From Candidatus Jordarchaeales archaeon (lineage in GTDB: Archaea; Asgardarchaeota; Jordiarchaeia; Jordiarchaeales; Freyrarchaeaceae): a DNA stretch of 32,000 bases. Below the pieces are notes generated by a model that ran no database searches, was not told where the DNA came from, and saw nothing but the letters and a program-made list of their open reading frames with translations. A program made the position numbers and the translations under genes. The DNA is taken from positions 974,499 through 1,006,498 of the forward strand of contig JAWAHN010000001.1 in NCBI GenBank assembly GCA_038889235.1. Direction: 5' to 3'. Shown piece after piece: positions 21,589 through 22,181 of the stretch. Numbering within the stretch: position 1 is the stretch's first letter; each line of letters begins with the position of its first letter.

Positions 21589-22181
21589 ATGTCGAAAGAA
21601 CTTATCTACAAAGTAATTCTCGCAGGGGACGGAGACGGGCTGGTGTATTCCTCTAACTGAGACACCAACCCGCCGGAACTGTAGGAAAGACCAGTCTAAT
21701 CTCTCAGTACATTAGTGGAAAATTCCAAGTCGAGTACAAGAAGACTATACATGGGTAGAATTACTACCCGTGGGTTAAAGGCATCGATATATTCTCGAAA
21801 ATACTTAAGGTAGGTGACTCTGCAGTTAAACTAGTAATTTGGGACCTTGGAGGGCAACCTCACTTTAAACATGTCCGAAGTAGTTTCTATCAGGGCGCTA
21901 TGGGCGCCATGCTTGTTTACGACATAACGCGCCGCTCCACGTTCGAAAATTTAGAAAACTGGAGGAAAGAAATGCTGAAAAACACGAAAGAAGAACCAGT
22001 CACTATAGTTATAGGGAACAAAGTTGATCTTGCGCACTTGCGCGAAGTAAGAACAGAGGATGGAAAAAAATATGCCAAAGAGATAAACGCTCCTTTTTTT
22101 GAAACATCCGCAAAGGACGGCAAGAACGTTGAGGCCGCCTTTGAGACGTTAGTCAAAATGATCTTAGAAAGGAAAAAATGA
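21589..22181 (+). CDS. Rab-like small GTPase, split: join(21589..21634, 21679..21748, 21779..22181), 172 aa
   Basis: Joined product MSKELIYKVILAGDGAVGKTSLISQYISGKFQVEYKKTIGIDIFSKILKVGDSAVKLVIWDLGGQPHFKHVRSSFYQGAMGAMLVYDIT...GNKVD...ETSAK...ERKK has G1-G5 and RabF-like motifs. Strong SD before the ATG. Confidence 0.9.
21635..21678 (+). other. Putative 44-nt BHB-type mRNA intron in the P-loop codons
   Basis: Hairpin CGGG/CCCG plus TGGTGT/ACACCA; bulges AG^A and AA^C; central helix ACGG/CCGG. Contains in-frame TGA 21658-21660 and shifts the frame. Confidence 0.85.
21749..21778 (+). other. Putative 30-nt BHB-type mRNA intron in the switch-I codons
   Basis: 9-bp stem CATGGGTAG/CTACCCGTG; central helix GACT/GGTT; bulges AU^A and AA^A. 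Contains in-frame TAG 21756-21758. Confidence 0.85.

Follow-up and report, generated by a model that had tools for sequence, protein, structure and literature searches.

A probable BHB-type mRNA intron of relaxed form, the second of two in a Rab-like GTPase gene of a Jordarchaeales archaeon

A gene for a Rab-like small GTPase in the genome of a hot-spring Asgard archaeon (Jordarchaeales) is interrupted twice, and the second interruption, 30 nt long and placed in the codons of switch I, is in our estimation a genuine mRNA intron with a relaxed BHB motif that would be removed by the endonuclease EndA and the ligase RtcB (probability about 0.85). We infer the actual cleavage and ligation, and the part of EndA and RtcB as agents, from the comparative evidence presented below. 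The gene lies in a stretch of 32,000 nt of contig JAWAHN010000001.1 (assembly GCA_038889235.1, positions 974,499 to 1,006,498 of the forward strand), which we call the window and whose numbering is used throughout; the features of the gene are collected in Table 1.

Table 1. Features of the interrupted Rab-like gene and of its second intron, in window coordinates. A caret marks a predicted cut and a slash the position of an insert.
Feature	Position	Strand	Remarks
TATA-like box TTTAAAA	21507..21513	+	~75 nt 5' of start codon
Shine-Dalgarno-like GGAGG	21575..21579	+	GGAGG or GGGGG kept in orthologs
Exon 1, 46 nt: MSKELIYKVILAGDG and first base of Ala codon	21589..21634	+	
Putative intron 1, 44 nt, phase 1, inside G1 P-loop GDG/AVGKT	21635..21678	+	44-55 nt in the five lineages that have it
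Exon 2, 70 nt: (A)VGKTSLISQYISGKFQVEYKKT and first two bases of Ile codon	21679..21748	+	Ras profile 9-32
Central helix H, exon strand GACU	21743..21746	+	partner GGUU 21773-76
5' splice-site bulge AU^A, predicted cut 21748/49	21747..21749	+	invariant in 7 orthologs; unpaired between H and inner stem (RNAalifold consensus)
Probable intron 2, 30 nt, phase 2 in Ile39 of T-I-G (switch I / RabF1)	21749..21778	+	in-frame TAG 21756-58
Inner helix h'	21750..21772	+	9-bp stem 21750-58 with 21764-72, loop 21759-63 (5 nt)
Central helix H, intron strand GGUU	21773..21776	+	invariant across orthologs
3' splice-site triplet AA^A, predicted cut 21778/79	21777..21779	+	invariant; without closing outer helix
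Exon 3, 403 nt: third base of Ile codon, GIDIFSK...WDLGGQ...GNKVD...ETSAK...ERKK	21779..22181	+	Ras profile 33-161

Translation starts at the ATG at 21589, 9 nt 3' of the GGAGG, and the gene closes with the TGA at 22179-81. A straight reading meets two breaks: stops follow MSKELIYKVILAGDG, a second frame can be read as G-T-VGKTSLISQYISGKFQVEYKKTI followed by HG and a stop, and the frame is back at GGC 21780, in that same frame, as GIDIFSK...WDLGGQ...GNKVD...ETSAK. Followed from GGA 21675, the second frame runs ...AAG AAG ACU AUA CAU GGG UAG, and resumption at GGC 21780 makes the second insert 30 nt long and in frame; the prediction of the initial annotation that retention would end translation at TAG 21756-58 therefore agrees with the frame. 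Removal of both introns in silico yields a Rab-like GTPase of 172 aa with all five G motifs in order, namely GDGAVGKT (G1), YKKTIG (the G2 Thr), WDLGGQ (G3), GNKVD (G4), and ETSAK (G5). These correspond to the elements by which we recognised a Rab/Ras protein, which were GxxxxGK[ST] in G1, a Thr in G2, DxxG in G3, NKxD in G4, and SAK in G5, all on a match to the Ras profile (Pfam PF00071). Exon 2 matches positions 9-32 of the profile and exon 3 positions 33-161 (2.7e-39), and because the profile passes from 32 to 33 without a gap across intron 2, the insert has no counterpart in the Ras family. Among solved structures, the best relatives of exon 3 were the Thorarchaeota Rab 7EZB (2.1e-33) and then Rab11 (about 4e-31), while exon 2 aligned to residues 21-43 of Rab7. 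The gene is thus akin to Asgard Rab-like GTPases such as that of PDB 7EZB, whose genes, unlike the Rab gene of the window, have no described interruption. The six other strong Ras-family paralogs of the genome are without stops. Upstream of the start codon, the TATA-like box is kept as TTTAAA(A/T) or CTTAAAA at orthologous loci while the intergenic DNA around it diverges, a pattern that suggests a promoter.

The second insert can be described in terms of a central helix, an inner stem, and two triplets. The four pairs of helix H between GACU and GGUU are G.U, A-U, C-G, and U.G (two Watson-Crick and two G.U), and the inner stem pairs CAUGGGUAG (21750-58) with CUACCCGUG (21764-72) over 9 bp (including one G.U), with AAUUA as the loop. 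The insert, at 21749-21778, is flanked by ACU AU on its 5' side and by A GGC on its 3' side. The initial annotation had described an insert of 30 nt with this 9-bp stem, 5-nt loop, and mixed central helix, and its description was exact to the base. It had also placed cuts at 21748/49 and 21778/79, inside the one-nucleotide window that restores YKKT-I-G-IDIF, and this too holds: the cuts give ACU AUA GGC, or T-I-G, and since A49 equals A79 the junction is ambiguous by 1 nt (removal of 21749-21778 or of 21750-21779). Its two bulges fared differently. Both triplets are present and the AUA is a true bulge, but the AAA, with no outer helix to close it, is single-stranded sequence beside the 4-bp helix and not a bulge in the true sense; conserved pairing of 21735-42 with 21780-90 was not found, the RNAalifold columns being unpaired and the minimum free energy (MFE) fold giving only scattered weak pairs. 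Measured against a strict hBHBh' motif, then, the insert shows a conserved 4-bp helix and a conserved AUA bulge on the 5' side, the 3' AAA is unpaired and not enclosed as a bulge, and the outer exon-exon helix h is missing. The absence of this outer helix places the motif in the relaxed HBh' type (HBh' / BHL), of which it has every part: H, the 3-nt bulge at 21747-49, h', and the unpaired AAA at 21777-79 beside H. Its handedness also matches the layout cut by the splicing endonuclease, with the exon strand of the helix, a 3-nt bulge, the inner stem, the intron strand of the helix, and a 3-nt stretch in that order. The fold z-score of the insert alone is modest (-2.64), and the central helix is missing from the MFE fold of 21730-21800 taken as a single sequence. 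A group I or group II self-splicing intron was rejected, as the insert is a single hairpin of 30-32 nt, compared with a ribozyme core of hundreds of nucleotides. Searches of the genome with both introns (blastn-short) found no second copy of either, which rules out a family of repeated mobile sequences.

A protein search found the gene in Asgard archaea that NCBI names Jordarchaeales or Freyarchaeota, and every match above 80% identity carries the annotation of a fragment (93-149 aa). On the contigs with these matches the genes follow one order, LysE, Rab, 2-hydroxyacid dehydrogenase, AsnC, which identifies the matches as orthologous. The insert occupies the same codon in all seven distinct syntenic orthologs (the window counted) and measures 30 nt in the window, L054, L056, and L020, 31 nt in L016 and L057, and 32 nt in L018/L023 and L055. 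Inserts of 31 or 32 nt cannot be read through, since the frame would shift, but every ortholog has an intact frame downstream; because relatives keep the insert at lengths that wreck the frame, it is very probable that the enzymes of tRNA splicing also splice the Rab mRNA. Cuts placed behind base 2 of each triplet gave intact proteins of 171-175 aa for the six orthologs whose 5' end is complete, and GDGAVGKTSL and YKKTIGIDIF were invariant in these proteins (6/6); on the partial contig L055, the splice-site flanks were identical to those of the other orthologs. Since every one of these sequences was assembled from metagenomes and belongs to one and the same family, the seven are relatives and do not count as independent samples. 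The Rab ortholog and the neighbouring 2-hydroxyacid dehydrogenase were not found in three genomes of the same genus (G001-G003, 73-92% complete), where only paralogs at about 40% identity occur; loss of the locus or an assembly gap may explain this. Elsewhere in the neighbourhood, the window encodes an 890-aa multi-pass membrane protein (17884-20556, + strand) that has no Pfam match and ends in a C-terminal, zinc-ribbon-like CPRC...CPSC, with an 893-aa gene as its counterpart upstream in the orthologous loci, and L018 carries two small open reading frames (54 and 152 aa, at 560-1330) without Pfam hits between LysE and Rab, which are absent from the window.

We then examined base pairing and selection across the seven distinct ortholog sequences. 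In this alignment, 96.7% of cells in the proposed intron 2 structure are paired, and four stem pairs show compensatory double changes (A-U to G-C, C-G alternating with U-A, G-C to A-U, and A-U to G-C); the observed covariation score was reached by none of 500 shuffles, and sliding the partner strands as a control lowered pairing to 25-52%. RNAalifold, run unguided, recovered nearly the same structure, with 4/4 pairs of the central helix, 8/9 pairs of the stem, the 3-nt bulge, and one extra loop-closing pair. Helix H shows a single change, in L020, where C replaces U and the U.G pair becomes C-G. The hairpin loop is free in both sequence and length, while GAC(U/C)AUA and GGGUUAAAGG, the flanks of the splice sites, are invariant in all seven orthologs, despite values of dS from 0.8 to saturation. 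Over the same range of dS, the spliced frame has a dN/dS of 0.016-0.048.

The first interruption points in the same direction. The motif of intron 1 comprises the helix ACGG/CCGG, the triplets AG^A and AA^C, and the inner stem CGGGCUGGUGU/ACACCAACCCG, and its length is 44, 44, 55, 54, and 52 nt in five lineages. The invariant GDGAVGKT emerges in all orthologs from the BHB cut rule alone; simple removal of what lies between the CGGA repeats, or a hop from GGA to GGA, would give Thr in the window and L056 and Ala elsewhere, and the intronless genes all have Ala. Intron 1 is exactly absent in L018/L023/L055, where intron 2 stays, and also in the Freyarchaeum-type clade; its absence in L018/L023/L055 may reflect a loss or a later gain. 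The initial annotation correctly assigned the inserts to the two motifs G1 and G2, with intron 2 in switch I, and suggested that introns at such sites are hard to lose. This may be so, although the exact absence of intron 1 in L018/L023/L055 implies that clean gain or loss does happen at such a G1 site, and it is equally likely that conserved codons supply a stable exon half for the 4-bp helix.

To place the interrupted genes among their relatives, we reconstructed a tree of 44 Ras-family segments of this class. The seven intron-bearing genes form one clade (99/98), and its sister consists of six genes from larger Freyarchaeum-type genomes (support for the pair 100/99). In this sister clade (62% identity) both inserts are exactly absent in 6/6 genes, and the site of intron 2 reads ...ACU CU/A GGA.... 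The spliced window protein aligns with its best-matching intronless co-orthologs over residues 1-171, in 171 columns without a gap, at about 64-66% identity. In L024-L029, which belong to the Freyarchaeum-type group, the intronless co-ortholog adjoins a second Ras-family gene (35-42% identity to exon 3 of the window), a tandem arrangement that the window locus lacks. The survey of close relatives that the initial annotation had proposed as a check therefore found the insert kept in seven orthologs and exactly absent in six sister-clade genes. Taken together, the shared position, the lengths of 30, 31, and 32 nt, the covariation of the stem, the invariant flanks, the purifying selection, and the absence from the sister clade bear out its reading of the insert as an intron of tRNA type.

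The enzymes that such an intron would need are encoded in the genome. There are two EndA paralogs: alpha is nearest to the A. pernix catalytic chain 3P1Z_B (4.4e-47) and has K and K aligned to K44 and R46 of the A. pernix loop (the Crenarchaea-specific loop, CSL/L1), and beta has an Ala where the catalytic His aligns and is therefore expected to be the structural subunit. RtcB is present as well (600 bits), so that the host has both the ligase and an endonuclease of the broad-specificity kind, a kind that comprises (alpha-beta)2 enzymes bearing the CSL/L1 loop as well as epsilon2 enzymes. Alpha is encoded on G000:C1 (L002, 1192-1782), beta on G000:C3 (L003, 1474-2061), and RtcB at C1:704115-705422. 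The CSL loop confers cleavage of relaxed motifs (PMC3241643), and an (alpha-beta)2 EndA with this loop has been reported for Asgard archaea (PMC5829648). The HBh' / BHL motifs cut by (alpha-beta)2 EndA (PMC3241643; PMC5829648) have one formed bulge between H and h' and a second cut site that is unpaired, as in intron 2, whereas the substrate range of the Jordarchaeales enzyme is a prediction from its sequence.

Introns of like construction occur elsewhere in the same genome. The cbf5 gene (G000:C1, about 835880-835945, locus L062) has a 29-nt insert inside the catalytic GTL-D-P codon, and the match to the TruB_N profile changes frame at this insert. Its sequence, CACU AG^A GCCCC...GGGGGC GGUG AA^A, has the same layout as Rab intron 2 (GACU AU^A stem GGUU AA^A). 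Within the window, the tRNA-Leu(CAA) at 16658-16801 (+ strand) has a 32/33 intron, read by hand as CCGG AC^A CUUGC-UCCAC-GUAAG CCGG UC^U, the removal of which leaves a proper CU-CAA-GA anticodon loop. The multi-intron tRNAs of the window were missed by Rfam (evalue mode, 13900-17000) and by ARAGORN without intron mode; with intron mode, ARAGORN reported an intron-containing tRNA at 14091-14217 (- strand), called Gln, with a 47-nt intron.

From these observations, removal of intron 2 would proceed as follows. The pre-mRNA would fold locally into the HBh' motif, with GACU/GGUU, the 3-nt AUA bulge, the 9-bp intron stem, and the unpaired AAA; the (alpha-beta)2 endonuclease would cut after base 2 of each triplet (21748/49 and 21778/79); and RtcB would ligate the exons to ...AAG ACU AUA GGC..., restoring YKKT-I-G-IDIF. 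Unspliced, the Rab RNA would give no GTPase, because of the frameshift due to intron 1 and the TAG within intron 2. Four RNA runs (one small-share RNA run and three hot-spring metatranscriptomes) had no reads over the intron region: the three metatranscriptomes had zero reads on the whole stretch, and the fourth run gave one 233-nt contig, from a relative, that covers only 22071-22290 at the 3' end of the gene. A degenerate pattern search of JGI metagenome contigs did not find the spliced junction, and queries of the protein collection with exon 3 and the N-terminal exon did not find a full-length product at 80% identity or above.

Several other explanations for the insert can be weighed against this evidence. 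The hairpin might be recognised, and the insert removed at the RNA level, by another nuclease and ligase pair or another processing route, a possibility to which the relaxed motif, with its weak central helix and missing outer helix, lends some weight. We consider this very unlikely, given that the invariant parts are exactly those of the BHB cut rule (the 4-bp helix and the two triplets), that the same layout recurs in the tRNA intron and cbf5 of the genome, that intron 1 gives the invariant GDGAVGKT only by a cut after the second base of the triplets, and that the type of EndA encoded is one of broad specificity. Alternatively, the RNA could stay unspliced and the ribosome could hop over the hairpin gap, in the manner of the programmed translational bypassing of phage T4 gene 60. 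The short gap, the conserved hairpin, and the early stop at TAG 21756-58 would suit such a mechanism, and intron 1 even offers GGA...GGA (21631-33 and 21675-77) as possible take-off and landing codons. Nevertheless, the hop between these codons would put GDGTVGKT in the window and L056 and GDGAVGKT elsewhere, where intronless orthologs all have Ala, and endonuclease-type cutting is favoured on this account. Intron 2 moreover lacks matching codons, with AUA or ACU before the gap and AAA before GGC, and bypassing assigns no role to the conserved 4-bp helix and triplets, so that its probability appears slight.

A decaying pseudogene broken by two insertions is about as improbable as bypassing. 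It would account for the stops and the frameshift as annotated, for gene callers giving only fragments of 93-149 aa, and for the absence of the ortholog from three congeneric genomes. The gene is under strong purifying selection in all lineages with the insert (dN/dS 0.016-0.048, with near-saturated synonymous sites), which in effect excludes such decay, and the compensatory stem changes, the conservation of the promoter-like box and the Shine-Dalgarno sequence, and the five G motifs, all intact after excision in six lineages, likewise argue against it. The least probable of the alternatives is that the insert is translated, with read-through of the TAG and 10 extra residues in switch I, or that each piece is translated on its own and the resulting polypeptides assemble. 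The former is suggested by an insert that is 30 nt long and in frame in the window genome, but it is contradicted by the 31 and 32 nt found in orthologs, by the conservation of base pairing and not of coding content, and by intron 1, which shifts the frame upstream in any case; the latter is opposed by exon 3, in which neither a start codon nor a Shine-Dalgarno sequence precedes the Met at 21900. Removal of the insert by EndA and RtcB thus remains the reading that we prefer.

Endonuclease-type splicing of archaeal mRNA was, in the literature we searched, confirmed only for crenarchaeal cbf5, and one study states that splicing had been confirmed for no archaeal mRNA besides cbf5 (PMC2738675). 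The cbf5 BHB intron of Crenarchaeota (Watanabe 2002; Yoshinari 2006; Yokobori 2009, PMC2738675) is tied to a hetero-oligomeric endonuclease and has been gained and lost patchily among relatives, as is the case here. The present example differs in its gene, which encodes a eukaryotic-signature Rab-like GTPase, in its Asgard lineage, and in having two introns per mRNA; splicing of crenarchaeal cbf5 has also been experimentally confirmed, whereas that of the Rab mRNA is predicted from DNA sequence. The tRNA genes of Jordiarchaeia and Freyarchaeia are crowded with introns, with about 2 per tRNA gene in Jordiarchaeia (PMC11291895; bioRxiv 10.64898/2026.10.13.758758), and the same two studies make no mention of interrupted protein genes. 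Non-canonical tRNA introns of Jordiarchaeia/Freyarchaeia and of Thermoproteales (Marck and Grosjean 2003) have the same 4-bp helix, triplet cuts, and intron-internal stem, but the host RNA of the Rab introns is an mRNA, in which no tRNA body aids recognition and the exon half of the motif consists of conserved codons.

The Rab introns also bear some likeness to HAC1/XBP1, in that a short mRNA intron would be cut by an endonuclease at stem-loops and joined in the manner of a tRNA ligase. In HAC1/XBP1, IRE1 cuts the mRNA at stem-loops, and the spliceosome-free joining is of tRNA-ligase type (by RtcB in metazoa). That system differs in its nuclease, IRE1, in its cut-site motif, and in being regulatory, and regulation of Rab is not indicated here. 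Since unspliced RNA is untranslatable, splicing of the two Rab introns could in principle be a control point. It is nonetheless unlikely, in our judgement, that the tRNA-splicing machinery of Jordarchaeales is a general mRNA-splicing system that reaches eukaryote-like genes, with Rab splicing as a control point, and that the intron sites (GDxxVGKT and T-I-G) are related to intron positions in the eukaryotic Ras superfamily, the last part being the more speculative.

The probable Rab intron stands out for its host, which is a eukaryote-like Rab gene, for the occurrence of two introns per mRNA, and for the clean series of presence and absence. Rab intron 2 offers a testable substrate for the recognition of a relaxed motif outside tRNA by (alpha-beta)2 EndA. 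As gene callers split or truncate genes of this kind, inventories of Asgard genes, including counts of small GTPases, are affected. In the archaeal group closest to eukaryotes, a eukaryotic-signature gene would thus need two such splicing events in order to be readable.
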